From Escherichia coli (GTDB taxonomy: Bacteria; Pseudomonadota; Gammaproteobacteria; Enterobacterales; Enterobacteriaceae): DNA of 64,000 nucleotides. The position numbers and the translations under genes are program-made. Where the stretch lies: assembly GCF_044324785.1 (NCBI RefSeq), contig NZ_CP172127.1. One strand, written 5' to 3'. Below, piece after piece: positions 14,161 to 27,872 of this stretch. A model generated the notes under the pieces. It saw only the letters and a list, made by a program, of their open reading frames with translations. It searched no databases and was not told the DNA's origin. Each line of letters begins with the position of its first letter. The stretch's first letter is position 1.

Positions 14161-14470
14161 TTAACTGTCGCTTCGGCGACCACCAATGTTCCATGAGGCC
14201 TGTGAGGAACGCCTTCGGGTGGCCCATGTCGCTCCGGCGACCACCAATGTTCCATGTGGCCTGTGAGGAACGCCTTCGGGTGGCCCACGTCGCTCCGGCG
14301 ACCACCAATGCTCCATCTGACCAGTGAGGAGCGCCTTCGGGTGGTCAGTTTTACACCTCCGTAGCCTGAAAGGAGCTGTGCGTGCTGATGGGATATGTTT
14401 CCGGAAGTACGGGTAAATCTGCACACCTTTGCGAGCAGATGTCACCACGGTTTACGTGATGATGAAGGCA
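14161..14470. repeat. composite repeat copy 1: three tandem ~61-bp units (14166-14226, 14227-14287, 14288-14347) plus ~120-bp unique tail
   Basis: Directly visible; about 95 percent identical to copy at 16463-16773; each unit has GTCGC-TCCG-GCGAC hairpin and conserved GAGGAACGCCTTCGGGTGG core. Confidence 0.9.
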
Positions 14471-16462: not shown

Positions 16463-16773
16463 TAACTTGTCGCTTCGGCGACCACCAATGTTCCATGTGG
16501 CCTGTGAGGAACGCCTTCGGGTGGCCCATGTCGCTCCGGCGACCACCAATGTTCCATGTGGCCTGTGAGGAACGCCTTCGGGTGGCCCACGTCGCTCCGG
16601 CGACCACCAATGCTTCATCTGACCTGTGAGGAGCGCCTTCGGGTGGTCAGTTTTACACCTCCTGAGCCTGAAAGGAGCTGTGCGTACTGAAGGGATATGT
16701 TTCCGGAAGTACGGGCAAATCTGCACACCTTTGAGAGCAGATGTCACTGCGGTTTTCCGTGATGATGAAGGCT
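16463..16773. repeat. composite repeat copy 2 (same orientation as copy 1)
   Basis: Same three-unit tandem structure and tail as 14161-14470. Confidence 0.9.
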
Positions 16774-21412: not shown

Positions 21413-24328
21413 TTACTGAGTCAGTTTTTTTATCAGGTCGTGAATTTTATCACCTGAAAACTGGGTCATGAAAGTTATCTTTATGGATTTACTGATTTGT
21501 TCGAAGAGTTTCTGTGCATGTTTTATTTTATCGCGTTCTTCATGTCTGAGTTCACGTTTGCCATCAACATTTTTGGTTTCAATAATAAGGTTCAGATAAT
21601 CACCCTTTGACGTGTTTACAACATAAGCGAAGTCAGGGGAGTAAGTGTATCCTCCCGCTACAGGAATTTTTATTGAATTTTTGGGGATCTTTGTGAAGAC
21701 AATGACTGACCTGACCTCACCCTCTGTCATATTGAGTTTTTCAAGTTCTGAATCATAAAATACTTCTTCAAAAAGATAAGAGTCCAGTGGAGGGCTTGTA
21801 TTATCCTGTAAAACGCCAAGATCACTTGACAATACATCAGCAAGATAACCGCCGTCTGCATTGGTGAATTTCGTGGGATGGACAGTTCCTGATATTACAT
21901 TATACCCAAGGCTGAATTTACTGAACGAGTTATTAAGCAAATACTTGCTGAAACCAGATTTAATTTTTCTGATTGTCTGAATGTTAAGGTATTCAGTTAT
22001 ATTTATGATGTCTTTTATATCACAAAAAACCTTATGCATGGTGTCATGTTTGACAAAAATAGTCTGTGATAATTTATCAAGGAATTCACGATAGCTCATT
22101 GTGTTTATTTTGTGAAAATTATCCTCATCAACACTGAGAATGCTTTTCGACATTGCCGTATCATTATGGATATAAATTCTTTCAATACGAGTATGAGCAC
22201 CGGATTTGGTAAATCTGTCTGCTTCTTCCAGCATAAACGCTCTGAAAAGGGATAAAAACTCACGTTCACTTTTTATTTTATACTCAATCACGACCTTTTG
22301 ATTGATCAAGTCCCATAGTTCTTTCAGCTCACTGAACTTACCAACACGCATTTTAGTGCGTCTTTTTCCATCAGAGGCTTTTTTTATTTTGCCTGGTTTC
22401 ACTCCTGCAGGAAATGCTGCCGGATATCTGGCTTTTAAGCGGCTATAGGCATCTGAATCTTTGAAGTTATCATTATCATCAATGATCTCATCACCAAAAA
22501 TTTCATTCAAGAGTGTTCTGGAGGAAAGCTCCGGATATTGAGACAGGATTTTATCCTTAAGCTCCTGAGTAAACTTACCTGGAACAGTCTCTTTGAAAGA
22601 ACTATCGTTGATCTCTTTGACAAGAGAATCGACAAAATCTTTTTCTGTAAAATCAACATAATAGTTGAGGGTAAAATTGCGGTCTTTCACACGACACATG
22701 TATTCATTCACCGGAAGACGTAAACCACGCCCTACTTCCTGAAGTTTAGATGTGGTGCTACCGCTCGAACGGAGCTTACAAATCTGAAAGACATTTGGGT
22801 TATCCCATCCCTCACGCAACGTCCATTTAGAGAAAATGAAACGGCGAGGATTTTCTAAAGACAATAGAAGCTCTTTATCATGAAGGATTTCGTTGATTTC
22901 CTGCTCAATTTTATCATCTTTATCACTATTATCTTTTGAAAAATAACCACCATGAACAGAAGATATATCCTTAACAGTTTTTTCAAGGTAGTTTCTGTAA
23001 AACTCATCTTTTTCTGTTTTTAACAGTTCATTTGCTTCTGCCAAAACGTATTCTTCGAACTTAGTTTTCAGGCTTCCTGCAATATCATTACCATCACGAT
23101 AGCCTTCAATGTCATCAATGAAGAAAAGAGTAAGAGGTTTTATGCGTGGCCTTTGTGTCAGATACTCTTTTTCTAACTTAAAGTGTTCTTTGACAGCTTT
23201 ACGTATCATGTTATCAGCAAGTGTCTGATCGTAAGAATAGGGGTTTATCGAACTACCAATTTTTAGCTCAATACCATTACTCAACACTGCTGTATTCTTA
23301 TTTAAAGCATCAAGAGTTAAATCATGGATCGCACTATGCGTCTTAGATAGTGATTCACCTTTGGCTAACTTAAAAATTTTTTTATTATTATTTTCGTTCA
23401 GTTCAAATGTAGCTTCTTTTCCGTCAGATTTGACCAACTTGAGGTTGGCATTACCATCACCAACTATATCCTCAATGTATGCATCAATACCTTTAACAAG
23501 ATCTTCATTGAAGGCATCTACGGCTGTAAGACGATAAACTAAGTTCTTATAGCCTTCACTAAAGGTTGCACCATAGCGGATGATATATTGGGCATTAAAT
23601 TTTTGAATATGTTCCCATGTCTTTTTACCAGTAGGAAATTTATGAGGCTCATCAATGATAATGAATGGTTTTATCGCACTAAGTGCAGAAAATGGGGTAT
23701 CAAACTGATTATTAAGCAAGCCAACATCATAAGTGTCAGTTAAAGACTTAGAGTTAATCATCCCTGAATTGATCACAAGAATGTGTATATATTTCTTATT
23801 GAAATTACTTGCTTCAACAAAATCATGGATAGCTTGAGGTATATACGATTTTGTATTTTTACCCGAACGTTTCTGACTTTCAACAACGTAAGTCTTTAGT
23901 TCACGCTCGTAATCATCTCGAAAGTGTTCTTTTATAGCATCGCTTTTTAAAAAGTTAACGGTTCCGGCTTTGATCGATAGGGTAGGAACAATGATGATAA
24001 ACTTGTTAATACCAAATGATTTGTTCAGGTCAAAAATTGTTTTGGTGTAAGTATAAGTTTTACCTGTACCTGTCTCCATAGAAACATCAATTACGTTGCT
24101 TTTAGCATCGTAATTATCTTTTGAGTGCTCAATACCATTGAACTCCTGAACATTTTTTATGTTGTTGTAGTATTGTTGTTCAGATAGATTCAGTTCTGGA
24201 TTAGCTAACAGGCGAATTGCAACATGATCCGTCTGATGAGGTATGGCGGATACAAAGACATTCATTACCGAATCAACGCCAGCCTTTTGATGAGGTAAAT
24301 TTTTTTCGAATGTGAACCCTTTAGACAT
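21413..24328 (-). CDS. res: Type III restriction endonuclease, Res subunit
   Basis: 971 aa; helicase motifs METGTGKTYT and IIIDEPH; C-terminal PD-(D/E)xK-like region; size typical of EcoP15I-like Res; AT-rich. Confidence 0.85.
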   Translation of the reverse strand: MSKGFTFEKNLPHQKAGVDSVMNVFVSAIPHQTDHVAIRLLANPELNLSEQQYYNNIKNVQEFNGIEHSKDNYDAKSNVIDVSMETGTGKTYTYTKTIFDLNKSFGINKFIIIVPTLSIKAGTVNFLKSDAIKEHFRDDYERELKTYVVESQKRSGKNTKSYIPQAIHDFVEASNFNKKYIHILVINSGMINSKSLTDTYDVGLLNNQFDTPFSALSAIKPFIIIDEPHKFPTGKKTWEHIQKFNAQYIIRYGATFSEGYKNLVYRLTAVDAFNEDLVKGIDAYIEDIVGDGNANLKLVKSDGKEATFELNENNNKKIFKLAKGESLSKTHSAIHDLTLDALNKNTAVLSNGIELKIGSSINPYSYDQTLADNMIRKAVKEHFKLEKEYLTQRPRIKPLTLFFIDDIEGYRDGNDIAGSLKTKFEEYVLAEANELLKTEKDEFYRNYLEKTVKDISSVHGGYFSKDNSDKDDKIEQEINEILHDKELLLSLENPRRFIFSKWTLREGWDNPNVFQICKLRSSGSTTSKLQEVGRGLRLPVNEYMCRVKDRNFTLNYYVDFTEKDFVDSLVKEINDSSFKETVPGKFTQELKDKILSQYPELSSRTLLNEIFGDEIIDDNDNFKDSDAYSRLKARYPAAFPAGVKPGKIKKASDGKRRTKMRVGKFSELKELWDLINQKVVIEYKIKSEREFLSLFRAFMLEEADRFTKSGAHTRIERIYIHNDTAMSKSILSVDEDNFHKINTMSYREFLDKLSQTIFVKHDTMHKVFCDIKDIINITEYLNIQTIRKIKSGFSKYLLNNSFSKFSLGYNVISGTVHPTKFTNADGGYLADVLSSDLGVLQDNTSPPLDSYLFEEVFYDSELEKLNMTEGEVRSVIVFTKIPKNSIKIPVAGGYTYSPDFAYVVNTSKGDYLNLIIETKNVDGKRELRHEERDKIKHAQKLFEQISKSIKITFMTQFSGDKIHDLIKKLTQ

Positions 24329-24330
24329 GA

Positions 24331-26367
24331 TTAGTTCCTTACCACCAAATCTAAATCAATAGATTTTTTATTAGCATAACTTTTTAGTGCTTCATTGAGT
24401 TCCATCTGTTTCGCACTTTCGAAGTTGCTGCCATAAAATACAACTTTGTTAGGGGCAAAGTCTTTGTCTGCATCCAGCTTTTGAAGTAAAGCTTTCAAAG
24501 CCTCACTTGTGAAATTAGGCGCAATTAGATATAGCCGACCATCGCACAAGTGTGCTTTGTAGCCATTAAGGTCAATATCTTCAATTGGTGTTGTTAGCAA
24601 GCTGCCATCATACACGCACCATGTCGTCAATAGAGTGTCATACTGCTCTGGTGTCAATACAGCATCGTCAAAGAAACTAAGATTAGAAAGCGTAAGTTCA
24701 GACTCATCTTTCACTCGAAAATCATGAACTGTTTCAAATATTTTAAATCCCAAATCTCCATTATAATTAGGATTATCTTTTTTCAGCTTTTTTCCTGCCT
24801 TAATAATTCTGTCTTTTGTTATATTGAAGATGGATTTATACCCTTCTTTATAGGCTTGTTTCTTTTTATCTGTTTCTTCATCTAATTGAACACAGATGAA
24901 GTTTCTTTTCCTGCCGTCTTCAATATTTAACTCCAGAATACCATGAGCTGTAGTTCCAGAGCCAGCAAAAAAGTCAAGATAAATGTCTTTATCTTCGGTT
25001 TTTACTGAACCAAATAGTGTTTTTATTAAACTTGTTGGCTTCGGGTAGGAGAAATATCCTTTCCCACCAAAAAGATTTTCAACCTCAACACCACCATCAC
25101 TTTTAGTTGAAATAATTGATCTTAGTAAAAACTCTTCAACTTCATCTAAAAATTTAACCGAACTGGGTTGGGTGTTTTCTGTACTGGCAAACCAAATTCC
25201 ACCACAAATAACGCTACCATCATGTAGTTTTTTGATATCTGCATACTTTCCATCTATTCTTTTTGCAATATGATTAAAAGTGCCTTCTTTCCAACGCCAG
25301 CCTCTGTCTGGGATTTTGACAGGGTTATTAGTCAAAGGGTGCAATACTTCATACGTGGGTCCAAATGAATCTGCATTAGGCCAGCTCATATTAATTTTAC
25401 CCCATGGCCTATAATCTTCGTTCAAACAGTTGTAAAGAGTAATTCCACGATCATATCCGTTGGAGCTGTAGAATTTTTTGAGTTGCTGCTCTGCTTTATC
25501 TAATGGCACCTTCTCCTTTTTTAACTTTTCAATAAACTGATATACATCATCAATACCATCTTTCCGCATTAAAAATTCTTTACTTATTTCGTTATTCTTC
25601 GCATAAGCAAGGATGTACTCATGGATATTACCAATACCCTTATCATTTTTAGGGATACGTTTATTCCATACAATATTTTCTATGAAATTTGCTTCGCCAA
25701 AAATTTCATCACAAATAGTTTTAAGTTGATTTAATTCATTTTCGTCAATCGAAATAAATATCACACCATCTTCACGTAGAAGCTCACGAGCAATATATAA
25801 ACGAGGATAAATGAACGTTAACCATGCGCTATGGCTGCTTGAACCATTCGTGGTAAATTCAAGTATACGTTTAGCCTCATCAAGATCGATACCTGCCAGA
25901 TCAGAAAGCTGTTCAGGTGTAAACTTGCGATCATCGTTATAGGCGAATCCATCCTTACCTGTATTGTATGGTGGATCAATGTAAATCATCTTCACCTTTT
26001 CAGAGTAAGCATTAACCATATGCTTCAATACTTCGAGGTTATCCCCTTTGATTAACAGATTCTGACTGTTTTTGTTCTCTTCACGTTGGTTATGGTCTTT
26101 ATCTTCGGAGAGTAATGTCTTCGGCGGCAAGTTAGCTAACAGACGGGCATAGGATTTACCAAGCCAGTTCAGGCTGTATGATTCTTTGGAGAGTTCAACA
26201 TCCGATGATTTGACGATTTCAAGCAATTTTTCCTGAATGAACGCTCCATTTTTATCAAAACACTGTGGAAAGTTAGCCTTTAAAATCGCAAGCTGTTTAC
26301 TGTTTGTGGTTTCAGTTTCAGAGAAAAGAGTTTCTTTTTTCAGTTGAAATTGGGGTTGTGTATTCAT
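24331..26367 (-). CDS. mod: Type III DNA methyltransferase, Mod subunit (N6-adenine, beta-class)
   Basis: 678 aa; motif IV IYIDPPYN precedes motif I FFAGSGTT; own SD GGAGG 6 nt before ATG; immediately upstream of res. Confidence 0.85.
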   Translation of the reverse strand: MNTQPQFQLKKETLFSETETTNSKQLAILKANFPQCFDKNGAFIQEKLLEIVKSSDVELSKESYSLNWLGKSYARLLANLPPKTLLSEDKDHNQREENKNSQNLLIKGDNLEVLKHMVNAYSEKVKMIYIDPPYNTGKDGFAYNDDRKFTPEQLSDLAGIDLDEAKRILEFTTNGSSSHSAWLTFIYPRLYIARELLREDGVIFISIDENELNQLKTICDEIFGEANFIENIVWNKRIPKNDKGIGNIHEYILAYAKNNEISKEFLMRKDGIDDVYQFIEKLKKEKVPLDKAEQQLKKFYSSNGYDRGITLYNCLNEDYRPWGKINMSWPNADSFGPTYEVLHPLTNNPVKIPDRGWRWKEGTFNHIAKRIDGKYADIKKLHDGSVICGGIWFASTENTQPSSVKFLDEVEEFLLRSIISTKSDGGVEVENLFGGKGYFSYPKPTSLIKTLFGSVKTEDKDIYLDFFAGSGTTAHGILELNIEDGRKRNFICVQLDEETDKKKQAYKEGYKSIFNITKDRIIKAGKKLKKDNPNYNGDLGFKIFETVHDFRVKDESELTLSNLSFFDDAVLTPEQYDTLLTTWCVYDGSLLTTPIEDIDLNGYKAHLCDGRLYLIAPNFTSEALKALLQKLDADKDFAPNKVVFYGSNFESAKQMELNEALKSYANKKSIDLDLVVRN

Positions 26368-26581
26368 AACGCACCTCCAGAATGCACGGAGGTACTTGAC
26401 GCGGAATTTTTATACAGGCATATTGTTGCGTTGCGTTGCGTTGCGTTGCGTTGCGTTGCGTTGCGTTGCGTTGCGTTGCGTTGCGTTGCGTTGCGTTGCG
26501 TTGCGTTGCGTTGCGTTGCGTTGCGTTGCGTTGCGTTGCGTTGCGTTGCGTTGCGTTGCGTTGCGTTGCGTTGCGTTTCAT
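26318..26581 (-). CDS. leader ORF containing the pentanucleotide tract; encodes (RNATQ)x10; overlaps mod start by 49 nt in current frame
   Basis: ATG at 26581 with SD GAGG; ORF reads through repeat and ends at 26318 inside mod. Confidence 0.4.
   Translation of the reverse strand: MKRNATQRNATQRNATQRNATQRNATQRNATQRNATQRNATQRNATQRNATQQYACIKIPRQVPPCILEVRYEYTTPISTEKRNSFL
26426..26575. repeat. pentanucleotide simple-sequence repeat (TTGCG)x30 on + strand (CGCAA on mod strand)
   Basis: 30 perfect tandem units counted directly. Confidence 0.95.
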
Positions 26582-26614
26582 TAAATAGCCTCGAGTTTCG
26601 TTTTACAGGTTTTT

Positions 26615-26643
26615 ATTCTAACCTGAATTGTTGATTTTCTGAA
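26615..26643 (-). promoter_or_regulatory. candidate sigma70 promoter for leader-mod-res
   Basis: -35 TTCAGA and -10 TAGAAT with 17-bp spacing on minus strand, about 30 nt upstream of leader ATG. Confidence 0.35.
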
Positions 26644-26661
26644 TAAGTCTGACGTCAGTTG

Positions 26662-26830
26662 TTACGGGAAGGTATCAGAGTGGCTAGATGCACTGTGGCA
26701 CGTCTCATGGCGGTTATGGGGCTTGCCGGCGTTCTCCGGGGGGTAAAGCTCCGTGCTACTGTCACCTGGAACGCCGTTGCCGCAGGCGACCGCGTAAACC
26801 GTCTGTACCGCCCGGGCCCAATATTAAGAA
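26662..26830 (+). pseudogene. short remnant resembling IS3-family transposase OrfB N-terminal region
   Basis: translation VARCTVARLMAVMGLAGVLRGVKLRATV...DRVNRLY resembles the RxxVARLMRxxGL pattern of IS3-family OrfB; GC-rich patch in AT-rich context. Confidence 0.3.
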
Positions 26831-26858
26831 CTAACGTCATACCAGGGACGTTGTCTGA

Positions 26859-27872
26859 ATGGATGAGAAGCTAAAACATGCGGATTTATCGTCTTTGCCA
26901 GAGCAGGTGAGGGTTGCCGCTAGGGAGCTTGTTGACCTGAAGTTTCGTATCGATATGGCAGCAAGAGGCGGTACGTCAGGGATACCACTTGACCTGCATG
27001 GGAGGATGACAGGAGGAGAATGGGGGCCGCATTGCGGGCTGGAATTTTTCTGCAGCATCATTCCTTTTTTCCCGCGAGATTTTGAAACCTGTTCAGTAAC
27101 TGAAATGTTGGTTCCTACCTTACATACCTTCGGCTGCAACTGGCGTTGGTGGCCCGATCGTTATTGTAGCGACAAAGATGAACACTATATACGGCGTCAC
27201 ATTTTTTCTGATTACGGGCTGAAAAGTACGAGCTATACCTTCATTCCTCAGTTGGGATTGTTCTGCCCGAGTGAAGGTAAAAATCGTGTTAACTTCTGCC
27301 GCCATCACGGTATCGAATATATCCCCGCACAGGTTTATTCCCATGATTACCCAGAAGCAAATCGAATCTCTGTGTACGTTCAGGATACTGCCGGAGGGCT
27401 GGATGTGTGGGCCGTTCTTGATAATCGCTATGTTCAGAAGGTTACTCACTATGCCTTTGCGCTCCCACTTTTGTGCGCTTATGGGGTAGAGTTCCCAGGT
27501 AAGTGGCCAGCAGGATGGCCATCGATATCGGACCTCCTGGCTAATCAACTGTGTTGCACTGATGACACAACCTTTCATAAACCCGTGATCGATATGCAAG
27601 CTGTCAGGGATACGCTGGATCGTGATGAGAACAGCAGAGAGGATGGGGAGATGTATGTCAAAACCAATGTGGTTGAGCTGCCGCTGGCCGGGCTGGTTCG
27701 CTTCATTCTGATCGCAATGTTACTGAGTTTAGGTGCGTTGTTCATCCACGAGGTACTGGATGAGGGAAGCCTGTCCAGGATTGCACTGGGAATAAGCACT
27801 TTCACGGCTGGCGTGGTTGCTTCGTTTTTTATCCCAGCGTTCCGTATCAAGAAAAAATATCTTCGCAAATAG
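26859..27872 (+). CDS. hypothetical protein with C-terminal double TM anchor
   Basis: 337 aa; Cys/Trp-rich soluble domain then two hydrophobic helices; no family recognised. Confidence 0.45.
   Translation: MDEKLKHADLSSLPEQVRVAARELVDLKFRIDMAARGGTSGIPLDLHGRMTGGEWGPHCGLEFFCSIIPFFPRDFETCSVTEMLVPTLHTFGCNWRWWPDRYCSDKDEHYIRRHIFSDYGLKSTSYTFIPQLGLFCPSEGKNRVNFCRHHGIEYIPAQVYSHDYPEANRISVYVQDTAGGLDVWAVLDNRYVQKVTHYAFALPLLCAYGVEFPGKWPAGWPSISDLLANQLCCTDDTTFHKPVIDMQAVRDTLDRDENSREDGEMYVKTNVVELPLAGLVRFILIAMLLSLGALFIHEVLDEGSLSRIALGISTFTAGVVASFFIPAFRIKKKYLRK

Follow-up and report, generated by a model that had tools for sequence, protein, structure and literature searches.

A strain-variable pentanucleotide repeat in a leader reading frame: a candidate uORF-coupled translational switch of an ICE-borne Type III mod-res operon in Escherichia coli

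What might a long, pure sequence repeat do when it lies not inside a methyltransferase gene but in a separate small reading frame just ahead of it? The question is raised by a 64,000-nt stretch of Escherichia coli DNA (contig NZ_CP172127.1 of RefSeq assembly GCF_044324785.1; the whole stretch is called the window below), in which a restriction-modification (R-M) operon of Type III, mod-res, carried on an integrative conjugative element (ICE), is preceded by a leader open reading frame (ORF) that holds 30 pentanucleotide units. Phase variation of Type III mod genes driven by simple sequence repeats (SSRs) is well known. At roughly even odds (a probability of about 0.5), we propose that here an SSR switches the translation of mod-res through coupling to an upstream ORF (uORF), a mechanism that we infer from sequence and predicted RNA structure. 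The parts of the locus, in the order in which they would be transcribed, are listed with the way in which each was located; n is the number of repeat units.

26615-26643, minus strand: sigma70-like promoter, -35 TTCAGA (26643-26638), 17-nt spacer, -10 TAGAAT (26620-26615); promoter scan
26589-26592, minus strand: Shine-Dalgarno (SD) sequence of the leader, GAGG, 7 nt ahead of ATG 26581; direct reading
26318-26581, minus strand: leader ORF in its 30-unit state, 87 codons, MK(RNATQ)n...; ORF list and in-silico variants
26426-26575, minus strand: (CGCAA)x30 SSR, TTGCG on the plus strand; Tandem Repeats Finder (TRF) and direct rebuilding of the sequence
26410-26412, minus strand: TAA, leader stop for n = 1 mod 3 (e.g., 31 units), in frame with mod; in-silico variants
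26371-26395, minus strand: RNA hairpin GUACCUCCG-UGCAUUC-UGGAGGUGC, 9-bp stem and 7-nt loop; RNA folding
26374-26378, minus strand: SD of mod, GGAGG, 6 nt 5' of the ATG, in the 3' arm of the hairpin; direct reading and folding
26364-26367, minus strand: ATGA, the mod start joined with the TGA (26366-26364) that is the leader stop for n = 2 mod 3 (e.g., 29 units); in-silico variants
26318-26320, minus strand: TGA, leader stop for n = 0 mod 3 (the state of the window, e.g., 30 units), 47 nt into mod; in-silico variants
24331-26367, minus strand: mod, EcoP15I-like Type III N6-adenine DNA methyltransferase, 678 aa; PDB, Pfam and PADLOC
21413-24328, minus strand: res, Type III restriction endonuclease, 971 aa; NCBIfam and PADLOC

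The repeat is exceptional within its surroundings. TRF reports a single array at 26425-26577 (period 5, 30.6 copies, 100% matches, no indels), and this 150-bp pentanucleotide array is the only short-unit SSR in the window, the remaining arrays being just two copies of a 61-bp tandem repeat. For a perfect array of this length a chance origin is impossible. A preliminary description of the stretch had placed thirty perfect units inside a leader ORF starting at ATG 26581, which TRF and the ORF list confirm exactly. The tract is long and pure, with a 5-nt unit that is not a multiple of 3, as expected of an SSR contingency locus. Because its sense strand contains no T, none of the frames of the tract can hold a stop codon. 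The leader, which begins ATG AAA and is labeled ‘hypothetical protein’ in some genomes by the Prokaryotic Genome Annotation Pipeline (PGAP), appears to have initiation signals of its own (GAGG, a 7-nt spacing and ATG AAA), and their conservation is consistent with a uORF able to couple to the following gene. The leader SD is conserved in all alleles, with only the two bases just 5' of it differing in loci L009 and L010.

The region was rebuilt with 24-36 units, and on translation from ATG 26581 the leader stops cycled strictly through the three states listed above as the unit number changed. In the 30-unit state of the window the leader runs over the first 50 nt of mod, with the stop counted. 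The three stop geometries foreseen in the preliminary description for 29, 30 and 31 units, and every coordinate given for them, proved correct on this rebuilding.

A physical way for the leader frame to matter is provided by the predicted hairpin that lies just 3' of the TAA. It sits between this stop and the mod ATG, with the other two leader stops located 3' of the stem, and pairs the entire mod GGAGG. It folds at -13.9 kcal/mol (z = -3.7), better than any of 200 shuffled sequences; in L009 the closing G.U pair has become G-C through a U-to-C change, which strengthens the stem to -16.6 kcal/mol. The SD hairpin is the only stable element when the entire leader mRNA is folded (centroid structure), and the leader mRNA outside the hairpin folds worse than all 200 shuffles (z = +4.9), so that the repeat RNA is essentially single-stranded; by this model nothing in the unstructured tract RNA should hinder translation of the leader. 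Opening the SD is predicted to cost 7.5 kcal/mol in the free transcript, giving a predicted unpaired probability of ~6e-6, and 10.2-10.8 kcal/mol while a ribosome occupies the TAA. The downstream SD is, by prediction, occluded by stable structure, and two of the three leader frames cross the hairpin. The TAA (26412-26410) ends 14 nt 5' of the stem, a distance at which, from general footprint geometry, a terminating ribosome is out of reach. By the established work of de Smit and van Duin on hairpins at ribosome-binding sites (RBSs), a stem of such stability should cut independent initiation by orders of magnitude, and mod would then depend on translation of the leader. The preliminary description had credited mod with a strong SD of its own: the GGAGG is indeed present, but it is predicted to be paired in a stable hairpin rather than free.

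These elements suggest how the switch could work. The tract would act as a contingency repeat that fixes the reading frame of the leader, and hence whether ribosomes unwind the hairpin locking the RBS of mod; slippage by one unit would rotate the leader among its three stops, and the outcome would be stochastic, heritable and reversible switching of the operon. What unit changes do to the leader is visible in the sequence, namely a move among three stops placed around a predicted SD-sequestering hairpin; what they would do to mod follows from the model. We tentatively advance a heritable switch with three translational states, OFF, high and intermediate, according to whether the leader stops before the hairpin, on the AUGA or past it. 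With n = 1 mod 3, the leader ribosome would halt at the TAA, the hairpin would stay closed and mod would be OFF or low; res would be low too, because it is coupled to mod and Res needs Mod for DNA recognition. With n = 2 mod 3, the hairpin would be melted, and termination on the AUGA could be followed by reinitiation with the freed GGAGG, giving the highest expression. With n = 0 mod 3, as in the 30-unit window, the hairpin would also be melted while the ribosome reads 47 nt further in another frame, and expression would be intermediate, exposure of the SD being set against its occlusion by elongating ribosomes.

Such a switch calls for a tract that changes length between isolates, and it does. 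Unit numbers in the complete genomes are 47, 25, 25, 29, 19, 33, 13, 7, 34, 37 and 37, compared with 30 in the window, and further assemblies have 25, 40, 24, 41, 15, 10, 19, 25, 20, ~27 and 5. The range is 7-47 units in chromosome-scale assemblies and 5-47 once short-read contigs are included. The tracts of the window and of strain E19035 are 17 units apart (30 vs. 47), with no mismatches over 3 kb on each side, and four more genomes (25, 29, 33 and 13 units) show 2-4 flank mismatches in total per 6 kb. This polymorphism amid conserved flanks (0-4 mismatches per 6 kb in the main clade) is what contingency loci display, and, judged from the sequences compared, the tract is hypermutable between isolates; invariance across isolates, which would have spoken against the proposal, is not observed. 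In L004 (3326-3470) the tract is interrupted, with 20 units, CGAAA and 8 further units (29 in all, the ATGA frame), an interruption that might slow slippage and ‘lock’ that frame. A metagenome scan returned one contig, with 3 units, which is probably a short-read collapse. Atack et al. describe a collapse artefact of this kind for the repeat in E. coli that produce Shiga toxin (STEC) (PMC5909438). A homology search with the leader peptide found seven proteins only, all with the frame-0 tail; most of these derive from tracts that are short or collapsed, and two seem to be full of errors. None of ten leader peptides (n = 24-33) turned up in an exact look-up.

Each of the three frames occurs in genomes with intact mod and res. 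The class n = 1 mod 3, with its stop before the hairpin, is found in 10 of the 16 megabase-scale assemblies (binomial P = 0.016), and in 13 of 21 (P = 0.007) when smaller contigs are included, a suggestive excess of that frame among the assemblies counted.

The module is retained where the DNA farther upstream is not. All alleles examined have the promoter, the SD and ATG of the leader, the three stops and the hairpin in common, despite replaced upstream sequence. In L010 and L011, everything beyond ~135 nt 5' of the leader ATG has been replaced, an autotransporter fragment standing in for the longer IS3 remnant described below. The Mod proteins of these two loci share 14-56% identity with the Mod of the window in the central ~400 residues and 92-100% at the ends. 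The same leader precedes both Mod specificity alleles, and the locus has the multiple alleles of the target-recognition domain (TRD) that characterize phasevarion mods; phase-variable mod genes elsewhere also have alleles that differ in the central TRD, as part of the published record describes.

Transcription is expected to run through all of these elements. TTCAGA-17 nt-TAGAAT, the promoter-like site pointed out in the preliminary description, is the sole sigma70-type match on the mod strand in 26200-27000 and is unchanged across four aligned alleles; the same scan found no sigma70-like promoter between the tract and mod. A transcript from the upstream site must carry the leader, the tract and the hairpin. 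No GATC (Dam) site was found by direct reading of the promoter-leader region, making epigenetic switching of the Dam/Lrp type unlikely, and a search of Rfam returned no known RNA family, only sub-threshold miRNA noise. The module is bordered upstream by a fragment of an insertion sequence (IS).

26645-26806, strand unassigned: IS3-family transposase remnant, upstream border of the module; ~90% identity to IS3/IS629-type transposase genes

The IS3/IS629-type matches to this remnant come from thousands of E. coli records (query positions 95-256); it is annotated as a partial IS3 transposase in matching genomes and is differently truncated in L010. Beyond it, a divergent 337-aa ORF (26859-27872, plus strand) is conserved in most carriers, overlaps a degraded RelE/ParE-HigA toxin-antitoxin pair and another transposase fragment, and has no Pfam, PADLOC or other family match. 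We rejected the idea that the tract controls this divergent gene, since in L010 and L011 the same leader-tract-mod module does not have it upstream.

Where does the arrangement occur? The search of related genomes for leader, tract and mod together, as the preliminary description had suggested, was negative outside E. coli: an SSR-bearing leader precedes none of the Mod relatives at 79 loci from other species, and plasmids and phages match the mod coding sequence only, not the leader arrangement. The EcoP15I and EcoP1I systems (phage P1, p15B) have a close Mod homologue and the same mod-res order, and the 5' end of P1 mod has 77% nucleotide identity to that of the window, but P1 and P7 have the coding sequence alone in common with it and lack the leader ORF, the repeat and the hairpin upstream. 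A small conserved gene precedes mod in Citrobacter, Klebsiella, Pseudidiomarina and a family of ~42-kb plasmids (L090, 2650-3005; L017, 2700-2995; L012, 2700-3000; L115, 2198-2482); the plasmid copy, L115, encodes ~95 aa, and the gene ends 10-50 nt ahead of mod. The IS3 remnant, the promoter and the SSR leader take the place of this gene in the E. coli ICE. Because the leader is absent from relatives, we regard the module as a lineage-specific invention beside an IS3 scar. (CGCAA)n also occurs in three viral contigs, in unrelated contexts.

By sequence, the operon is EcoP15I-like. The Mod protein matches the EcoP15I Mod structure 4zcf_A (E = 2e-242, with residues 9-678 aligned to 1-644), contains the Pfam domains N6_N4_Mtase (PF01555, 4e-34) and T3RM_EcoP15I_C (PF18273, 3e-34) expected of a Type III Mod, and scores 771 bits as PADLOC MTase_III. 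Res, the subunit that combines an SF2 helicase with an endonuclease, scores 1072 bits against the NCBIfam equivalog NF012027 (cut-off 564) and 1597 bits as PADLOC REase_III, with PF04851 and PF19778 on identical products. It lies directly downstream, 2 nt separating the mod stop from the res start (TAA-TC-ATG). The locus is present in 11 of 5426 complete genomes, and in a larger collection of assemblies four Mod alleles have exact copies in 1222, 315, 842 and 183 indexed blocks. In nine of the 11 complete genomes the RefSeq annotation gives an intact mod regardless of tract length; the other two have an IS1 insertion just inside mod (L008, 3455-4152) and a mod frameshift (L009, 3440-5397). Lesions of res comprise a frameshift in L003 (5548-) and a split gene in L094 (3540-5037). 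The number of inactivated carriers suggests recurrent selection against the active system.

In the avian-pathogenic E. coli (APEC) strain E19035 the operon is surrounded by ICE genes (TIGR0375x ICE proteins, TraG, TraI, ardA and integrases), and the element also has a type IVb pilus cluster that includes a PilV shufflon. The GC content of the operon (window 21413-26367) is 35%, far below the 50-62% of the backbone, which marks mod-res as ICE cargo; from its sequence, the operon is best taken as a recent acquisition from a low-GC source. Several features of the element deserve mention in their own right. At ICE locus L092, start hairpins containing the SD occur at ardA (29679-30188) and at small neighbors (31147-31548 and 30608-30994), with energies of -14.1, -14.4 and -11.8 kcal/mol over -33..+3, comparable in strength to that of mod; this ardA region corresponds to ~16.9-18.8 kb of the window. 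The start hairpins of ardA, its two neighbors and mod hint at a shared translational or single-strand-specific control. Two 288-nt direct repeats (window 14166-14453 and 16468-16755, 96% identical and 2302 nt apart) each hold 2.9 copies of the 61-bp tandem unit and, by mapping to E19035 coordinates, flank a small gene for an ‘integrase domain-containing protein’ together with a hypothetical gene; the pair may be a small recombination cassette within the ICE. The module was also found on a circular metagenome contig of 93,456 bp (L111; ENA ERZ26120546, ‘Circular_plasmid_575’), which may represent the ICE excised as a circle, or else an artefact of assembly.

Several observations weigh against a regulatory role for the leader. 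Three stops within ~105 nt, together with an ATGA, are not improbable for DNA of 35% GC. Unit counts from assemblies can err, as short-read contigs break or collapse at the tract and many end there. The frame excess falls to 10 of 19 (P = 0.065) after equal lengths are collapsed per allele group, and the frames are evenly spread inside the largest of these groups. Of 43 gene starts in the same ICE, 3 (mod, ardA and one neighbor) have comparably strong SD hairpins, so that the hairpin by itself is not exceptional. Moreover, mod or res is broken in three of the 11 complete genomes as well as in L094; the locus is often decaying, and the leader may therefore not be under selection. The loss of significance on collapsing duplicates, the even frames, the inactivated copies and the unremarkable spacing of the stops would all be expected if the tract were a neutral, hypermutable microsatellite with no effect on mod-res, which arose in an intergenic stretch left by IS-mediated rearrangement (the module does adjoin an IS3 remnant), slips freely because 5-nt loops are poorly repaired, and has a leader ORF and stops that are incidental. 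We nevertheless consider neutrality unlikely: it leaves without explanation a tract placed precisely between a good SD/ATG and a hairpin-locked RBS, with stops on both sides of the hairpin, the retention of this arrangement across two TRD alleles and two upstream contexts, a sense strand that is free of stops in all frames, and the persistence of very long pure tracts (up to 47 units).

Two further explanations keep a regulatory role for the repeat but dispense with the frame. The transcribed repeat could be a rheostat, tuning mod-res gradually by its length through decay of the mRNA, through the loading of Rho onto C-rich unstructured RNA, or through the time taken to translate the leader; the position of the tract downstream of the sole promoter-like site, from which its transcription is expected, the wide length range of 5-47 units and the composition of its RNA (40% C and 20% G, unstructured at z = +4.9) all fit this account. 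Rho favors C-rich unstructured RNA, and YC dinucleotides are the preferred contacts of its primary site; the repeat has none, and if the leader is translated, ribosomes would cover the tract in every frame. There is a documented precedent in the 5'-untranslated region (UTR) SSR of hmw1A, where expression is inverse to length (PMC12721329), but the repeat here, unlike that of hmw, has no downstream pairing partner for a long hairpin. Pairing of the repeat RNA with UGCGUU near the mod SD was considered and rejected, the short complementarity UGCGUU/AACGCA beside the SD being broken in L005 and L010 and absent from the centroid fold. We think a rheostat improbable, and control at the level of transcription, in which the repeat would serve as an upstream element or binding-site array for a weak downstream promoter, or as a spacer for an activator, still more so. 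SSRs upstream of promoters modulate transcription in other species (nadA, hifA/B), and a -10-like TATAAA does lie at 26414-26409, 11 nt past the tract. The scan finds no promoter there, though: the best -35 candidate in the repeat matches at 2 of 6 positions, a periodic tract offers an unchanged -35 content at any n, its length far exceeds that of a -35/-10 spacer, and the palindrome TGACGTCA upstream of the -35 is not conserved. Hardly any weight can be given to classical phase variation with the repeat inside mod itself, as in modA, modB and the STEC mod, which would require Mod to start at ATG 26581. The sequence refutes that start: in all alleles the TAA at 26412-26410, in the mod frame, parts the leader from mod; residue 1 of EcoP15I Mod aligns to residue 9 of our Mod; relatives in other species begin at a homologous position; and mod is annotated as intact at any tract length, the lesions in the two exceptions being unrelated to it. 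The claim of the preliminary description that the repeat lies outside mod, in contrast to the known in-mod repeats, therefore stands on the in-frame TAA and the EcoP15I-like N-terminus. Translational coupling through the leader remains our preferred reading.

If this reading is correct, the locus would be the first uORF-coupled phase-variable R-M system, and one controlling a complete, restriction-proficient Type III operon. To our knowledge, E. coli is considered to have few SSR contingency loci and to rely on other mechanisms of phase variation, and we know of only one phase-variable mod reported in this species. The present mod would then be the second, mechanistically distinct from the first and carried on a self-transmissible ICE with ardA and a type IV pilus. 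Switching would bear on the balance of the ICE between phage defense and further gene uptake, on its establishment in a new, unmethylated host, and possibly on epigenetic heterogeneity in avian-pathogenic and Shiga-toxin-producing lineages. Systematic surveys look for phase-variable methyltransferases through repeats inside annotated mod ORFs (PMC5909438), where a repeat in a separate leader is invisible, and such switches may be under-counted. The tract sequence was not found in print in the literature searched, and neither coupling nor leaders nor upstream ORFs are mentioned in a 2025 review of phase variation.

What is new is the architecture and not an SSR-linked mod in E. coli as such. 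The authors of the preliminary description knew of no repeat-bearing coupled leader in Enterobacteriaceae, but a phase-variable mod had already been reported there: a 2018 survey of REBASE gave as the first E. coli case the STEC mod M.Eco131I, with CAGCGAC[26] in the annotated ORF and variable lengths (PMC5909438). It is a different gene with a different architecture. The system of the window resembles the known phase-variable Type III mods in having a long, strain-variable SSR with a unit that is not a multiple of 3, several TRD alleles and an expected outcome of stochastic ON/OFF methylation, here extended to restriction as well. It differs from them in that the repeat is in a separate upstream ORF ending before, at or 47 nt past the mod start, so that the Mod protein sequence is constant whatever the tract length, and in that control would operate through RBS unmasking or coupling, with three states possible; res is also intact in most copies, and the system is ICE cargo.

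Outside R-M systems, a precedent in layout is lex2A/lex2B, reportedly described by Griffin and colleagues in 2003 and Deadman and colleagues in 2009, in which an SSR lies in the short upstream ORF lex2A and the enzyme is encoded by the next gene, lex2B. That locus belongs to H. influenzae, encodes a lipopolysaccharide (LPS) glycosyltransferase and has a tetranucleotide unit. A published primer table gives GCAA repeats for H. influenzae lex2A, with one frame of three scored ON (PMC6479036). The (ATCTTTC)n repeats of H. influenzae hmw1A and hmw2A are 5'-UTR SSRs that form a long hairpin processed by RNase III (PMC12721329), and are similar to our tract in being transcribed upstream of the gene, in acting post-transcriptionally and in reaching long, variable lengths. 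The hmw repeat, however, is an arm of its long hairpin and acts by length, whereas the tract in the window is unstructured, lies inside an ORF and could act by frame; by folding it forms no long repeat hairpin of the hmw type (z = +4.9, with only the SD hairpin in the centroid).

Coupling at a sequestered RBS is itself familiar from the MS2 coat-replicase pair, leader peptides of the ermC type and termination-reinitiation at AUGA overlaps. The leader and mod resemble these systems in that the upstream ORF has an SD of its own, the downstream SD is held in a predicted stem, and the stops of the first ORF are grouped around the start of the second. Where such coupling is known, its state is physiological, set by ribosome stalling, or constitutive; here it would be genetic, and inherited through the number of repeat units.

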